A stretch of DNA of 64,000 nucleotides, taken from sequence record MW749001.1; one strand, given 5' to 3'. A program made the position numbers and the translations under genes. This document shows positions 4,764 through 63,583 of this stretch, piece after piece (the first letter of the stretch is position 1; every line of letters begins with the position of its first letter). The DNA comes from Escherichia phage vB_EcoM_Kelasse. The notes under the pieces were generated by a model that did no database searches, was not told the DNA's origin, and saw only the letters and a list, made by a program, of their open reading frames with translations.

Positions 4764-6083
4764 TCACACATAAAACACATCATAACGACCACGTGTTACA
4801 CCAACATAAAGAAGTTGTTGAGCTAATTCAGCATCTGCATAATGAATACAAGGCGTATAAATGAAAGCACGGTCTACAGACATACCCTGAGCTTTATGGA
4901 ATGTTGATGCAGGAAGTGCTTTCACTTTACTAAACTGTGATTTAGCATCCCAAAAATCACTCCACGGAGCTTTTCCGCCTTTGTTCCAATTTTTATAAGT
5001 TTCTGCCGTTTTACCTAAAAACAGGTTAAACTTATATAGCTCTTCATCAGATGAAATTATTTTAATCTTTTCACGATAATATTCATCATCGCCATAAGTT
5101 TCTACTGTTAAATCCCAATGACGAATTAAGTATTCTCCAGGAACACCACGAGCTTTAACAAACGTTGATGTATACTCTGCTTCTATAATACGAACTAATT
5201 GTCCGTTATTAAAAATAATTTCTGACACAGGCTTTCCATCAATTTTATATGTTTTAATTAATGGTTCCTGCATTACAATAATTTCACCAACAATAAAATC
5301 TTTATCAGTTTCAAAAATCTTTTTACGAATAATGCTATTTAACTTGTCAACAGATTTATTCGTAAATGCCATTACGCGATTTTCAAACAAATCATCTAAT
5401 GATTTTACGATTGAAAAATAATTTACCATAAAATCGCGTAAAGCGGTATCACCAGTAAATCCACGTACTCCATGCCCGTCAACAACTTTATCATAAATCC
5501 ACTTACCGTTGCGAACATCAGTAGCTACATCAATAATAGGAGCATTACTGCGTTTAACTTCAGTAAGTTCACACTGATAAAAATCTTTGTGTGTAAAGAA
5601 TGGACTGATATAAGCAGTATTTTCTCCTGGATCAACAGGTCTAATTTGCTTATTATCACCTATTCCAATTATAGTACACCAAGGTGGAATAGTTGAAAGC
5701 AGAATTTTAAATAGCTTTCTATCATACATTGACACTTCGTCGCAGATTAATACCCTGCATTTAGCTAAATCTGGTACTTCCTTCTGTTCAAAAAGAACGT
5801 TTTCTTCATACGTAACTGGGTTAATTTTAAGAATACTGTGAATAGTACTCGCTTCTTTCCCCGACAGTTTTGAAAGAATCTTTTTAGCTGCATGTGTAGG
5901 AGCTGCCAAAATGATACCAGTTTCGCCTGTTGATATTAAAGCTTCAATGATGAACTTAGTAAGAGTAGTCTTACCAGTACCAGCAGGTCCATTAATAGTT
6001 ACATGATGTTTCTTTTCTTTAATAGCCCTCATAACGATGTTAAAGGCATTTTTCTGGCCTTCTGTCAAATCATCAAATGTCAT
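4764..6083 (-). CDS. dda: Dda DNA helicase (SF1B)
   Basis: 439 aa; Walker A GPAGTGKT; sequence recognised as T4 Dda. Confidence 0.95.
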   Translation of the reverse strand: MTFDDLTEGQKNAFNIVMRAIKEKKHHVTINGPAGTGKTTLTKFIIEALISTGETGIILAAPTHAAKKILSKLSGKEASTIHSILKINPVTYEENVLFEQKEVPDLAKCRVLICDEVSMYDRKLFKILLSTIPPWCTIIGIGDNKQIRPVDPGENTAYISPFFTHKDFYQCELTEVKRSNAPIIDVATDVRNGKWIYDKVVDGHGVRGFTGDTALRDFMVNYFSIVKSLDDLFENRVMAFTNKSVDKLNSIIRKKIFETDKDFIVGEIIVMQEPLIKTYKIDGKPVSEIIFNNGQLVRIIEAEYTSTFVKARGVPGEYLIRHWDLTVETYGDDEYYREKIKIISSDEELYKFNLFLGKTAETYKNWNKGGKAPWSDFWDAKSQFSKVKALPASTFHKAQGMSVDRAFIYTPCIHYADAELAQQLLYVGVTRGRYDVFYV

Positions 6084-19407: not shown

Positions 19408-19557
19408 TCAATTGATACATTCATATTTAACTTGTAACAGTAATAAACCCCAACCTAAAATAATAGTCGGAATCATAAGAGGAACCGTTACACTATAGTA
19501 TATACTTATTATAATCATCAAGATTAAAAGCAACACTTCTATAATTTTGCTTTTCAT
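19408..19557 (-). CDS. small hydrophobic peptide (49 aa)
   Basis: Hand-translated MKSKIIEVLLLILMIIISIYYSV...; ATGA overlap with imm stop. Confidence 0.4.
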   Translation of the reverse strand: MKSKIIEVLLLILMIIISIYYSVTVPLMIPTIILGWGLLLLQVKYECIN

Positions 19558-19805
19558 TCCTTCTCTCTGATGATAATTACTTGATTTGGCTGTGCAGACT
19601 TTTTAGTTTCACCCGCAATTGACCAAATAAATGTAATAAACCAACCAATAATTGACCAGTTAAACAGCAAAGACGTGAAAAAGATTCCTACTGTCGATTT
19701 TGACCCACGCATCAAGGCGATAAACCATGGAAGCATGTATATAATAATAGCCAACACACCTGAAACTAAAACCATAAAAATTGAACCTGCTACTAAAGTT
19801 TCCAT
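19554..19805 (-). CDS. imm: immunity (superinfection exclusion) membrane protein Imm
   Basis: 83 aa; two transmembrane segments; size and position as T4 imm. Confidence 0.75.
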   Translation of the reverse strand: METLVAGSIFMVLVSGVLAIIIYMLPWFIALMRGSKSTVGIFFTSLLFNWSIIGWFITFIWSIAGETKKSAQPNQVIIIREKE

Positions 19806-57427: not shown

Positions 57428-57901
57428 TTATTTGAATGATTTGACGTACTGAATAGAACCTTTACTATTCACGAAAGCGATTTTACCATTTTTATTATAC
57501 ATGGTAGCAGTACGCTGATAGCCATAAGTTTGTTTACCAGATTGATAACCAACTAATGCGAAATTATCTTCACCCATTTTATTCTGTTTAGCGCGAATAC
57601 GTTCATGACCGTGTGCCATAAGAACCTTAGCATCACCAGTTGAAATTGATCTACGAGTTTTTTCATCTTCAACTGTATTAACAAAGTCGTCAAATGAATC
57701 AAATTTAGCATGGGATTTATTATACAGTTTTCCATCTACTGCATAATTATATCCCTGTACATCCATCTCAACTTCTGTACCATCATCCAATACAGCAGTG
57801 ATTTTTTGACCTTTTTTAAATTTCAAAAGATCAGTAAAAGATTCAGCAATAATTTGAGAATTAATAGCTGCTTCAGTGATAAATTCTTGATATGTTTTCA
57901 T
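57428..57901 (-). CDS. internal-protein-like protein with capsid targeting sequence (157 aa)
   Basis: N-terminus MKTYQEFITEA matches the T4 internal-protein targeting motif. Confidence 0.6.
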   Translation of the reverse strand: MKTYQEFITEAAINSQIIAESFTDLLKFKKGQKITAVLDDGTEVEMDVQGYNYAVDGKLYNKSHAKFDSFDDFVNTVEDEKTRRSISTGDAKVLMAHGHERIRAKQNKMGEDNFALVGYQSGKQTYGYQRTATMYNKNGKIAFVNSKGSIQYVKSFK

Positions 57902-58385: not shown

Positions 58386-59188
<803 letters not shown>

Positions 59189-59644
59189 TTAAAAGAGGCT
59201 GTTCATTATTCGGTAAAGTGAAGGACCCATCACATATTGCCACTGAGTACGAGGAATAAGAGCAAAAGCATCCATCTCTGGAATCATAACACCATCTTTA
59301 TTTTCAAAATAAGACTCGCAATGGCAATTTCTAAACATCTCATGCTCTACTGGAATCGTATAATAAAACAGCTGTAAGTCTTTATTACTAGAATATTTAA
59401 ATACACCTAGGTCTTCTAGAAGGTCTGGATTATAATTGCTAAAACCGGTCTCTTCTAAGCATTCTCTTCGTGCTGCATCTAGTGCGCTCAAATCAGAATT
59501 TTCTACACGGCCTTTTGGAATATCCCAGCGATGTGCCATCATTCCAGGCTTACGAGAACCAGTAACCCGTCCCATGAATAAATCTTTATCTTCTGTCATA
59601 AAGATAATACCAGCTGATAATGTTTTCATTTTAATTTCCTGCAT
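59189..59644 (-). CDS. nudE: Nudix hydrolase NudE
   Basis: 151 aa; Nudix box region RRECLEETGF. Confidence 0.8.
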   Translation of the reverse strand: MQEIKMKTLSAGIIFMTEDKDLFMGRVTGSRKPGMMAHRWDIPKGRVENSDLSALDAARRECLEETGFSNYNPDLLEDLGVFKYSSNKDLQLFYYTIPVEHEMFRNCHCESYFENKDGVMIPEMDAFALIPRTQWQYVMGPSLYRIMNSLF

Positions 59645-60114
59645 TCGGTGATAAAATTATTTAAATTTTGAGTATATTTCTTTTCATCAAAAATCTTTTG
59701 CTGCCTACGTAAACGCCATGGCATTTCAATGAACGTGTACCATATCCCAGATAATATTGCTGCTGTAAAAATATTAACAAGTATGGTTAAAATAATCCAA
59801 TCTCCCGTTCTGTCTACTGGACTTTCTCCAAAGAAGCAAAATACAAATGATGTCACAGGAAAACTAATAATATACCACAGAATCATAATCTTATCTGTGA
59901 ACCAATCAGTGTTCGTTAATTTAGCGCGACCATTATGAATACACACGAATTTATCATCTGTTGCAGTAGATGGCTTAACTGGTTGATATCCCATTCTAAA
60001 CTCCCTAATCAGCAAATTTTTCATATCTTCGGAACAGCCATTCCAGTCAACTCTATCAACTGAAATGCCATCATCCCCATCATCTAAATCATACCAGCGA
60101 GTTTTTAAAATCAT
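59626..60114 (-). CDS. membrane protein, tandem paralog 1 (162 aa)
   Basis: Two hydrophobic segments; C-terminus NFITECRKLK. Confidence 0.55.
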   Translation of the reverse strand: MILKTRWYDLDDGDDGISVDRVDWNGCSEDMKNLLIREFRMGYQPVKPSTATDDKFVCIHNGRAKLTNTDWFTDKIMILWYIISFPVTSFVFCFFGESPVDRTGDWIILTILVNIFTAAILSGIWYTFIEMPWRLRRQQKIFDEKKYTQNLNNFITECRKLK

Positions 60115-60485
60115 TTGATTTTCCTACAATCATTCACGAATTCTTTCATTGATTCATTTTCAATATAAGACATGTAGTTATTATATTCTTTTAATTGTAT
60201 TTTGTAATCCTTTTTTCTTTGCCAATTTATTTTAAAATTATCATAATGAAAATATAAAATAATACCAAAGAATGAAAATAATGAAATCGCTATAGTATAA
60301 TGAAGTTCACTCCAAACTTCTATTATATCTACTATACCGCTGACATTACTGCGGATGTTTAAAATAATACAGTCAATCATTAATCCAATAAGACTACCAG
60401 CAAGAGCTGCAGCCAACGCCACAGCAAAAATTAAAAATGACTCAGAAAAAGAATATTTGACTTTATTTAGTTTTGGCTTTTGCAT
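60111..60485 (-). CDS. membrane protein, tandem paralog 2 (124 aa)
   Basis: Hydrophobic segments; C-terminus EFVNDCRKIK. Confidence 0.55.
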   Translation of the reverse strand: MQKPKLNKVKYSFSESFLIFAVALAAALAGSLIGLMIDCIILNIRSNVSGIVDIIEVWSELHYTIAISLFSFFGIILYFHYDNFKINWQRKKDYKIQLKEYNNYMSYIENESMKEFVNDCRKIK

Positions 60486-60880
60486 CGTGATTCCTTAACA
60501 AATTTCATAATTTCGTTAAATTCATGCATATCTAATTTAAGCTGGTGTTCCTTTTTAATCTTTTTACACTGAGCTTTCCATTCACGTACACGTTTACGAT
60601 AATGCCTTCCTTGATACCAATATCCTACCCAATTTACAGGTACCAATAAAAATGGAACTACTAATGGAAGAATTAATACTAACAAAAATATTACGCCAGA
60701 TTCAATATCAGTCATAAAGTCTATAACCATTCCAACAACCAATAGAATTACAAATGATATAGCTGTCACAGGACCTATTAATACATCAGTAGGAATTAGC
60801 TGACGCTTTAGTTCATACTTCACAGGTTTACTTGGAAGGTATAGTGATGGCTTTGACATATTCTCTACATTCCTTAACAA
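60467..60880 (-). CDS. membrane protein, tandem paralog 3 (137 aa)
   Basis: Hydrophobic segments; C-terminus KFVKESRCKSQN. Confidence 0.55.
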   Translation of the reverse strand: MLRNVENMSKPSLYLPSKPVKYELKRQLIPTDVLIGPVTAISFVILLVVGMVIDFMTDIESGVIFLLVLILPLVVPFLLVPVNWVGYWYQGRHYRKRVREWKAQCKKIKKEHQLKLDMHEFNEIMKFVKESRCKSQN

Positions 60881-61433
60881 ATTTTTCTAATAATAAATCG
60901 CTTTCAAAATTAGGATTTTCCACGAATTTATCAAAAAGATCATCAACGATAGTTAAGATATTCTTTTTATTAAGAATACGCTTATTTTCATATTTTGTTT
61001 CAGAGTCAACTATAAGAGTAAAGAAATATTTCTTTCCCTGAAATTTTACCGTAGTATCAATATATAACAAATTTGACTTTTGTAAATTACGTTTAAACCA
61101 TGCGTCACTTAAACTGTAAACGCCAAGATAATCATAATCGTCATTTAAATAACAAACTGTCCATTCAGGAGAAATGAAATCAGTAAATTCAACATCAAAA
61201 TCACACGTCAATGAATGAATTGATTCAATACTTTTAATGAGTATTCCAGGACGTATTAAAGACTTTTTACCTTTATAAAATCCAGAAAGACTTTCATCAG
61301 TTTCGTATGAAGACCCCCAATAGTAATTACGTCCTTCTGCCATACGTTTAAGAGCATTTAGTAATTGATCTGGAACATCAACCTGTCTTTGGAACTCTTC
61401 AAACATTGAATTGAAATCACTTTGCATTTTCAT
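60828..61433 (-). CDS. hypothetical protein (201 aa)
   Basis: ORF track. Confidence 0.5.
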   Translation of the reverse strand: MKMQSDFNSMFEEFQRQVDVPDQLLNALKRMAEGRNYYWGSSYETDESLSGFYKGKKSLIRPGILIKSIESIHSLTCDFDVEFTDFISPEWTVCYLNDDYDYLGVYSLSDAWFKRNLQKSNLLYIDTTVKFQGKKYFFTLIVDSETKYENKRILNKKNILTIVDDLFDKFVENPNFESDLLLEKFVKECREYVKAITIPSK

Positions 61434-61450: not shown

Positions 61451-61470
61451 AATAGGGGCCGAAGCCCCTT
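61451..61470 (-). terminator. C(UUCG)G tetraloop hairpin without clear U-tract
   Basis: AGGGGC-UUCG-GCCCCU. Confidence 0.4.
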
Positions 61471-61474
61471 ATCA

Positions 61475-62068
61475 TTATTTCAGAGAATTAATATATTCCT
61501 GGACATCGGCAGAGGTAGTTTCAACCCCAGAAATATTGCCGTTAAAAGTTTCAACTCGAGCAAGGGTATCTTCAATATCAACCTTAGTCAGTGCTGCAAT
61601 TTCAACTACATCATCGGCAGTACTAATTCCAAGGGCATTTGCCGCACGAGTTTCACGAATATATTCCAATTTAACTGCAAGTTCTTGGCGAGCATCATCT
61701 AACTCAACTACTTTCTTGGCGATTTCAATTCGCATTTCAGCATAACCGTCAGCTTTAGTAGTCAACTGCTCAGCTGTTCGGCGATATAGTAAACCGAGTT
61801 TAGCATGCATTGTTACATCTTGACCTTCGGAAAGAAGTTTTCGAATTTCACGCTCTTTTGATTCGGCCTGTCGATTCTTTTCGATAACAAGTTCACGAAT
61901 ACGTTTTTCTTCATTAATAGATTTAATAGAAGCAGTTTTTAGATCTTTAATTTTATCAAGTAGTTTTGCTGCTGCAGCAGTATACTGTTCTTCAACAGAT
62001 AGATTTTTAGCCATAGCAGAACCAAGTTTAGTGCGAATAAACTCAACAATTTTCTTCAGTGTGTTCAT
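61475..62068 (-). CDS. coiled-coil protein (197 aa)
   Basis: Heptad-rich throughout; loosely PspA-like layout, unverified. Confidence 0.5.
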
Positions 62069-62125
62069 AGTATTTCCTTAGATTGATACAATTAGATAAT
62101 ATCACGTTTTTAATAGATTGTAAAC

Positions 62126-63019: not shown

Positions 63020-63583
63020 TTATTTATCTAGTTTAGTTATTATAGCTTCTGCGGCAGCTTTTAGCTTAGATGCGGTGTTAATACGATTTTTAATTTCAGT
63101 ATACGCATCGCCAAGAACATCAAGGCTATCAGAATAAACACTTACACTATTGCGTTCGCTATTTGAAATAGAACCTTTAGTTTTACGTTCAAAATCGGTG
63201 TACACGTCTTGAAGATCACGGGCTGCCTTCTTTGCATCATCCAATGCATCAAGAGCTTTATTCAAAGCATTAACATATTTTTTAGTGTCGAACATATTCT
63301 TAGAAATTTTAACAGGTGCACGTTCAGGAGTAGCTAAGGCAGATTTAGGAACCTGAGCGCCAGATGCCAATTTCTTAGAAATTTTGAAAAATGCTTTATT
63401 GAAACTATTTTCTTGACTCATCGTAAAAGAACTATTATCAATGTTATACATTTCAATAGCTTTAGCTTTCCACTTAAGAAAATCGCCACGGTCTTTTGGG
63501 TCCAAGTGGAAGAATACTTTAGTAAGATCTGCTTCAGATGGTAATTTTGCTGCTTCGGTTAAAAATTCGGCGTAGGTTTTCAT
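63020..63583 (-). CDS. internal-protein-like protein with capsid targeting sequence (187 aa)
   Basis: N-terminus MKTYAEFLTEA; hairpin downstream. Confidence 0.6.
   Translation of the reverse strand: MKTYAEFLTEAAKLPSEADLTKVFFHLDPKDRGDFLKWKAKAIEMYNIDNSSFTMSQENSFNKAFFKISKKLASGAQVPKSALATPERAPVKISKNMFDTKKYVNALNKALDALDDAKKAARDLQDVYTDFERKTKGSISNSERNSVSVYSDSLDVLGDAYTEIKNRINTASKLKAAAEAIITKLDK

Follow-up and report, generated by a model that had tools for sequence, protein, structure and literature searches.

Three consecutive, overlapping genes on the minus strand of Escherichia phage vB_EcoM_Kelasse (MW749001.1) were analysed within a stretch of 64,000 nucleotides (nt), hereafter called the window. 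An initial annotation had read them as a local triplication of a small membrane protein, placed downstream of the lysozyme gene and nudE in a region associated with lysis. The genes are the long-catalogued T4 open reading frames (ORFs) e.4, e.3 and e.2; e.3 and e.4 are probably tandem paralogues, e.2 appears as a separate lineage, and the peptide that ends all three proteins also ends the soluble product of the neighbouring e.5. The three ORFs were confirmed where they had been placed, and only the e.4 end at 60880 had to be amended, since this is an upstream TTG and the conserved start is the ATG at 60859 (MSKPS..., found in every orthologue and annotated as the start in T4). The genes of the locus are the following (aa, amino acids; TM, transmembrane segment).

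60467 to 60859, minus strand: e.4 homologue, 130 aa, predicted N-in/C-in with two TM (28-46, 55-73), tail KFVKESRCKSQN, phrog_2604
60111 to 60485, minus strand: e.3 homologue, 124 aa, two TM (17-35, 61-79), tail EFVNDCRKIK, phrog_2330
59626 to 60114, minus strand: e.2 homologue, 162 aa, intact, N-terminal soluble domain (1-75), TM at 76-94 and 106-124, tail NFITECRKLK
60828 to 61433, minus strand: e.5 homologue, 201 aa, soluble, phrog_2607, tail KFVKECREYVK..., full ending KFVKECREYVKAITIPSK
59189 to 59644, minus strand: nudE (Nudix hydrolase), its start coupled to the e.2 stop, either at the ATGA of 59626-59629 or at the upstream ATG at 59644
61475 to 62068, minus strand: e.6, a highly conserved neighbour, used as anchor for fetching syntenic loci

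The surrounding 2.4 kb is 99.6% identical to Enterobacteria phage Kha5h (Tequatrovirus), and 513 phage records, mostly Tequatrovirus, match this 2.4-kb locus at 80-100% identity. Read along the minus strand the order is that of annotated T4, namely e.6, e.5, e.4, e.3, e.2, nudE and e (lysozyme), and by the direction of transcription e.4, e.3 and e.2 thus lie upstream of nudE and e, not downstream as first described. The start of e.4 is embedded in the final codons of e.5, e.4 and e.3 overlap by 19 nt, e.3 and e.2 by an ATGA (4 nt), and e.2 and nudE likewise meet in an ATGA.

The T4 genes e.2, e.3, e.4 and e.5 (NP_049738-NP_049741; PHROGs 2203, 2330, 2604 and 2607; PF26896, PF26873) are direct orthologues at 80-100% identity and in the same order. 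Full-length profile matches were obtained for e.4 (phrog_2604, E=1.4e-70, profile positions 1-130 of 130; PF26873 in all 99 homologues), for e.3 (phrog_2330, E=9.7e-62, positions 1-122 of 122; 45 homologues at 70-99% identity) and for e.2 (phrog_2203, E=3.7e-79, positions 1-166 of 166, N-terminal domain included; PF26896 in all homologues). No precomputed Pfam family exists for e.3, and the databases hold e.3 and e.4 as two distinct families, neither with an assigned function: PHROGs labels both "unknown function" and gives e.2 the generic label "membrane protein". Searches of Pfam and NCBIfam gave no meaningful match for these genes. Some public records use 'sulfurtransferase' or 'DNA primase' as the name of e.3/e.4 homologues, and homologues of e.6 appear as 'host specificity protein'; as no Pfam or NCBIfam model backs these names, they look like propagated annotation errors.

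The T4 reference copy of e.2 differs from that of the window. Compared with 59626-60114, the T4 sequence (5473-5961 of locus L001; NC_000866 67472-67960) carries a -1 and a +1 indel 78 nt apart, which give an annotated product of 102 aa and an orphan 51-aa ORF bearing the tail, whereas the e.2 of the window is intact. The 102-aa form is also found in other phages (P0194), and T4 e.2 is either a pseudogene or an old sequencing error. With e.2 frameshifted, the gene is therefore dispensable in T4.

The initial annotation had seen two hydrophobic segments and a basic tail in each of the three proteins, and topology prediction bears this out. Each protein has two strongly hydrophobic segments of 19 residues, separated by an acidic loop (0-1 K/R against 3-4 D/E) and flanked by an N-terminal segment and a C-terminal segment of 38-57 residues that are both rich in K/R. 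By the positive-inside rule this charge bias predicts an N-in/C-in hairpin for e.4, e.3 and e.2, which would put the tails of the membrane proteins in the same compartment as the cytoplasmic tail of e.5. In the AF2 model of e.4 (pLDDT 76) a helix at 24-49 is followed by a 4-residue turn and by a single continuous helix (54-129) running through the second TM, the basic region and the tail. The model of e.2 has the same helical layout at low confidence (pLDDT 52), and its N-terminal domain was uninterpretable. Foldseek with the e.4 model against viral structures returned orthologues only, sequence searches of the PDB with e.5 and e.2 gave no match, and when the e.4 profile was run exhaustively with HMMER over 1.84 billion representatives it brought up only 7 proteins, all of them e.4-type sequences or fragments. 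On these searches the e.4 family does not extend beyond T4-like phages, and nothing distantly related with a function surfaced.

As direct comparisons between the three proteins were weak and profiles of near-identical sequences gave nothing (see below), we gathered diverse orthologues by way of the e.6 anchor, which yielded syntenic loci from 54 T4-like phages and viral contigs of many genera. These loci, together with the window, were used to study the C-terminal tail. The tail sequences quoted in the initial annotation were correct, and the motif is shared and non-random. Its copies in the window are these.

60864 to 60881, minus strand: FVKECR of e.5
60485 to 60502, minus strand: FVKESR of e.4, with the Cys displaced to +6 and 16 nt, AAATTTGTTAAGGAAT, identical to the e.5 tail
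60123 to 60140, minus strand: FVNDCR of e.3
59638 to 59655, minus strand: FITECR of e.2

Among 252 ORFs of >=40 aa in the window F[IV]xxCR occurs three times, each time at a C-terminus (e.5, e.3 and e.2), and the form with [CS] adds e.4; the fourth gene of the block to carry the tail is thus the soluble e.5, which had been overlooked at first. The motif was not found in T4 positions 1-50000. Across the 54 loci F[IVL]xxC[RK] lies within about 24 residues of the C-terminus in 118 of 1055 unique coding-strand ORFs and is internal in only 2, and on the opposite strand 1 ORF of 468 has it. We regard chance as excluded as the origin of the shared motif.

The proteins that carry the tail fall into 21 sequence clusters. 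After removal of the tail, the only links that hhalign finds are one between the two e.5 subclusters (Prob 61%) and a weak one between two small clusters of soluble proteins (33%). At least five of the carrier bodies are soluble and unrelated, namely e.5 and families of 109-116 aa, 92-99 aa, 131-162 aa and 102 aa, and several two-TM families come in addition; the carriers belong to this variable region of Straboviridae genomes. The initial annotation had taken the shared motif as a sign of paralogy, a use that its presence on soluble e.5 and on several unrelated families takes away.

In 91 unique contexts Cys is encoded by TGT (46) and TGC (45), Phe by TTT (62) and TTC (29), and Arg by all six of its codons (AGA 27, CGT 23, AGG 16, CGC 9, CGA 8, CGG 2), and a hydrophobic residue (L, I, V or M) is found at -3 in 75 of them. 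Since all synonymous codons are used, selection acts on the peptide, and the sequences show a position-specific C-terminal tail that is selected at the amino-acid level. Positions -3, 0, +1 and +4 fall on a single helix face, which fits a docking surface at the tip of the long cytoplasmic helix. The e.4 lineage is degenerate, with S, I or V at +4 and, in Tequatro- and Mosigvirus, a Cys at +6. The e.5 tail is present in every genus examined, including Aeromonas phage 44RR, where no gene overlaps the end of e.5, and the FLEYCR and FIRMCR families likewise keep the tail without an overlapping downstream gene.

Two further observations concern C-terminal motifs of this kind. The Aeromonas loci L045 and L046 (4650-5932) hold two tandem e.5-like genes whose tails lack the Arg (SFINYCIVN..., SFVEYCIEM...); the tail therefore predates the enterobacterial T4-like phages and can degenerate. 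In Mosig-, Gapriver-, Dhaka-, Kanagawa-, Marfa- and Moonvirus loci we also met soluble proteins of 65-101 aa, placed in tandem after a membrane gene and all ending in [GS]-W-[VIL]-S-S-S-x-x-C before the stop. They form a second family in which a Cys motif is conserved at the C-terminus. It is absent from the window, and its arrays lie at the following positions.

L003 3231-4025; L004 3191-4457; L006 4522-5103; L007 4710-5293; L008 4567-5144; L010 5078-5846

We then asked how far e.4, e.3 and e.2 are related to one another. Pairwise BLASTP of the window proteins gave E values of 0.006, 0.075 and 0.16 only, e.3 matched the e.4 family phrog_2604 at E=0.008, and hhalign with shallow alignments (identity >70%) found short local matches only (Prob 1-7%). 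Because iteration of the profile searches led to drift after 4-5 rounds, with a reversed-sequence decoy coming up at E=5e-4, only early rounds were used, along with block-shuffle controls. With 14 diverse orthologues on each side hhalign aligned e.3 and e.4 end to end over 113 columns (Prob 94.9%, P=1e-8), and with the tails removed the match was still present (Prob 61%, P=1.2e-5). Built from e.4 orthologues alone, a profile reached the e.3 of the window (E=4e-4) while every decoy stayed at E=10 or above, and with a profile of e.3 orthologues alone the tail-less e.4 core outscored its block shuffles. Compared reciprocally with shuffles in which hydrophobic and polar blocks stay in place, the tail-less cores gave P values of about 0.01-0.04. 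It should be noted that the match at E=1.7e-7 from the e.3-seeded series is not independent, as that profile already held Gaprivervirus e.4 orthologues. In Gaprivervirus itself e.3 and e.4 match by BLASTP at E=8e-5. The two proteins also begin alike (MQKPKL, MSKPSL or MERPSL), and the tandem order e.5-e.4-e.3 is kept in Tequatro-, Mosig- and Gaprivervirus. From these sequence comparisons we consider e.3 and e.4 to be probable tandem paralogues.

The result for e.2 was different. A family profile built without e.2 aligns its residues 69-160 colinearly at E=5e-5 (best decoy 0.4), but the tail accounts for about 9 of the 21 bits, and the tail-less core scores 11.7 bits against 7.7+/-4.7 for block shuffles, 216 of 1000 shuffles being equal or better. 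Without the tails hhalign of e.2 against e.3/e.4 gave no signal (Prob 0.1-4%); with them it found a local match of 18 columns (P=4.5e-6) that is not specific, as unrelated families share the tail. In addition, e.2 has a 75-residue N-terminal domain that is not present in e.3 and e.4. Dhakavirus loci hold full-length e.2 orthologues (30-47% identity) beside nudE and about 5 kb from the e.5/e.3 block, and as e.2 adjoins nudE there and is distant from e.3, the adjacency of e.2 and e.3 in T4-like phages is probably a secondary arrangement. Hence the triplication first proposed is not supported: similarity beyond composition was found between e.3 and e.4, and the body of e.2 shows only the common architecture.

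A true triplication would require that all three genes come from one small membrane-protein gene and that e.2 later gained its N-terminal domain and diverged beyond recognition. The order of elements (hairpin, acidic loop, basic helix, tail) is indeed common to the three, the colinear alignment of e.2 fits such a descent, and the e.2-seeded profile reaches short two-TM proteins that are also within the e.3/e.4 set. Moreover e.4 and e.2 have CCTGTGACA...TCATTTGTA in common at the start of the first TM, where a natural fusion has occurred. The e.2-seeded search, however, let decoys reach E values of about 0.005-0.02, the contribution of the tail and the shuffle result are as given above, the tail sits on clearly unrelated proteins, and the place of e.2 in Dhakavirus is far from e.3. 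We therefore hold a common origin of all three to be unlikely, and treat e.2 as a separate, older lineage made up of N-terminal domain, hairpin and tail. For annotation this means that e.3 and e.4 can be merged into one superfamily, and that e.2 should not be taken as a third copy.

The DNA at the gene borders was compared next to the gene content of the loci. In the window the e.5/e.4 and e.4/e.3 junctions have the 16 identical nt as well as similar start regions, and the e.3/e.2 and e.2/nudE junctions have TGYAGGAAA...AAATGA in common. Within a genome the junctions of tail and start codon are thus similar enough in DNA for recombination. Natural recombinants are seen at such sites. In most Dhakavirus loci e.4 is absent and e.5 ends in a hybrid tail that combines its own with that of e.4, in locus L012 an e.3 ending in FVIDCRKLK is joined directly to the e.2/nudE junction and e.2 is absent, and phage UFV05 (P0143) has an e.4::e.2 fusion at PVT, the first residues of the first TM, where the two genes share the sequence named above.

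Per locus there are between 0 (44RR) and 3 (Tequatrovirus, Klebsiella phage Roth34 and others) two-TM, tail-bearing genes, and their positions vary. In the phage collection e.4, e.3 and e.2 were detectable in 676, 606 and 533 records, counts that are not strictly comparable, e.4 having been searched at E<=1 and the other two at E<=0.001. Between Tequatrovirus and Mosigvirus the identity is 88% for e.6, 54% for e.4, 46% for e.5 and 36% for e.3. The e.6 protein, which has no family assignment, was found in 1106 records; in phages of Proteus, Morganella and Citrobacter it can still be recognised at identities as low as 24-33%. We suggest e.6 as a candidate partner of the tail-bearing proteins.

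These borders recall the promoter early stem loop (PeSL) cassettes (PMC2839356, PMC4122927): in both cases short repeats lie at gene borders of hyperplastic regions where genes are gained, lost and swapped. PeSLs are intergenic DNA motifs of promoter and terminator, whereas the repeat described here is a coding tail with an overlapping start, conserved across genera as peptide and not as DNA. A PeSL cassette as such was rejected for the window, where the genes overlap without intergenic space and the only hairpin lies between e.6 and e.5. PeSL-mediated modular shuffling is still the closest analogy for the recombination at the junctions.

Such junctions raise the question whether the tail is only a by-product of constraint on the nucleotides, from the ribosome-binding site or start of the next gene or from a recombination cassette, the peptide itself being functionless. 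Tail-bearing genes do overlap the next ORF far more often (73 of 94, or 78%) than other ORFs (176 of 560), and in about 49 of the 94 the next ATG lies 1-10 nt past the Arg codon. At the two variable positions of the motif AAR/GAR codons are frequent, giving a likeness to a Shine-Dalgarno sequence, the junctions of the window share DNA as described, and the recombinants join at the junctions of tail and start. Against this, F, I/V, C and R use all their synonymous codons, many of these codons are not Shine-Dalgarno-like, and a further conserved hydrophobic residue lies at -3. The motif is also kept at 26 of 104 junctions without an overlapping or near downstream start, including that of 44RR e.5, and the distance to the next ATG spans -32 to +103 nt. 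It seems that nucleotide-level constraints explain the tail at most in part, and a functionless peptide we judge to be improbable.

A second way of tying the tail to the downstream start is to see it as a nascent peptide that modulates termination and re-initiation at the overlapping stop and start, and so tunes the stoichiometry of the coupled genes. This would account for selection on a peptide that nevertheless keeps strictly to the 3' end of its ORF and to the start that follows, and e.5-e.4-e.3-e.2-nudE is a tightly coupled block. The motif, however, lies 0-18 residues from the stop and so at no fixed distance from the peptidyl-transferase centre, it is present where no coupled downstream gene exists, and we know of no arrest peptide that it resembles. 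We find this explanation very improbable.

The expression of the region bears on the proposed association with lysis. Time-course omics data for T4 (PMC9697503, supplementary files 4 and 6) class the RNA of every gene from e.2 to e.6 as early. The five proteins were likewise all detected: e.4 and e.5 belong to the early class, e.2 and e.6, like nudE, to the middle class, and e.3 to the late one. Matches to an early-type promoter lie upstream of e.6 and e.7. The regulatory features are listed here.

62096 to 62124, minus strand: early-promoter-like site upstream of e.6, TTTACA-17-TATTAT with TG (consensus match only)
61454 to 61469, no strand assigned: stable hairpin GGGGCTTCGGCCCC between e.6 and e.5, with a UUCG loop and no clear U-tract
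59166 to 59186, minus strand: two TATAAATA late-promoter boxes between nudE and e

In a related phage the GGGGCTTCGGCCCC hairpin is listed as a terminator-like element that follows e.6 (PMC5931544), and in the window it may be an RNA-stability or processing element that heads the e.5-nudE block. The TATAAATA boxes set the late expression of lysozyme apart from this early block. In most genera the array follows e.5/e.6, and other genes intervene before e.

With two TM, a probable N-in/C-in orientation (here predicted from charge) and a charged C-terminus the three proteins have the overall architecture of class II holins, and in Tequatrovirus their genes lie near e and nudE, but a holin- or antiholin-like role together with e is highly improbable, given that the T4 RNAs and the e.4 and e.5 proteins are early, that e has late promoters of its own, that T4 lysis uses the holin t, encoded elsewhere, that the arrays of Mosig-, Gapriver-, Dhaka-, Kanagawa-, Marfa- and Moonvirus are not adjacent to e, that no holin family in Pfam, PHROGs or NCBIfam was matched, and that T4 has a frameshifted e.2 and some relatives none. 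Unlike class II holins, these genes also come in tandem copies, have a cytoplasmic helix of 45-57 residues and show no conserved linkage to an endolysin gene. The association with lysis is thus not upheld.

The account that we prefer is that e.4, e.3 and e.2 are small membrane proteins that share a selected C-terminal tail, and that this tail would serve as a tag. As a whole we place this explanation slightly on the favourable side; its descriptive part, the genes and the tail, ranges from somewhat to rather probable. Tentatively, and with less confidence than in the description, we speculate, as the likeliest mechanism, that hydrophobic-x-x-F-[I/V]-x-x-C-R is a portable C-terminal tag that delivers unrelated early proteins to one common cytoplasmic partner or fate. 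Through recombination at the tails a changing set of early proteins would have gained the tag; these include e.5, no fewer than four further soluble families and several two-TM families, those of e.2, e.3 and e.4 among them. The e.4, e.3 and e.2 proteins would be anchored in the inner membrane, their long cytoplasmic helix ending in the tag that they have in common with their soluble neighbours. The tag might then act in the docking or sorting of changeable accessory proteins, some of them membrane-anchored, early in infection, and the common partner or fate could be a receptor protein of phage or host, an inner-membrane assembly or a protease. Because of the fast divergence, the variable copy number and the dispensability, we suggest a role in interaction with the host (takeover, exclusion or counter-defence) rather than a core role.

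Several points weigh against this account. As T4 copes with a frameshift in e.2 and T2-like phages do without the gene, any function is dispensable in the laboratory, and the loss of the canonical Cys in the e.4 lineage means that this residue is not indispensable. The frequent overlap of tail and next start makes a role in translational coupling possible. The homology of tail-less e.3 and e.4 is moderate (Prob 50-61%), and the N-in/C-in topology is a prediction from charge bias. We found no published function for these genes, although searches of the literature by gene name were swamped by unrelated uses of 'e.3' and 'e.4'. Within the limits of that search the paralogy of e.3 and e.4 and the portable tail appear to be undescribed.

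The T4 Imm protein gives an idea of the type of role that could be imagined for e.3/e.4, as it is small, early, dispensable and has two hydrophobic helices; the long basic helix and the F-I/V-x-x-C-R tail are both missing from it. A relationship to Imm was rejected, the Imm homologue of the window (19557-19805) scoring 9.1 bits (bias 5.9) against the two-TM-plus-tail profile, which is the level of decoys. For the tail itself the closest analogy is the capsid-targeting sequence of the T4 internal proteins (N-terminal MKTYQEF...), likewise a short terminal peptide on otherwise unrelated, fast-evolving proteins of the same variable region, and a precedent in T4 for a tag that is portable. That sequence is N-terminal, is cleaved and directs proteins into the prohead, whereas the tail described here is C-terminal, has another sequence and is found on membrane proteins; the tag would thus be a C-terminal counterpart.

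The window also holds three ORFs of the capsid-targeting type, starting MKTY[QSA]EF...E; in one of them the start overlaps the stop codon of the lysozyme gene in an ATGA.

57428 to 57901, minus strand: ORF starting MKTY[QSA]EF...E
58386 to 58682, minus strand: ORF starting MKTY[QSA]EF...E
63020 to 63583, minus strand: ORF starting MKTY[QSA]EF...E

About half of the T4 genes have no known function, and many of these lie in variable regions like the present one. If the proposed account is true, a tag common to at least ten otherwise unrelated early proteins would offer one experimental handle on them, namely what binds the tail. It would also explain how genes of a variable region can be gained and lost with their translational coupling kept; natural deletions and fusions are found precisely at the tails.

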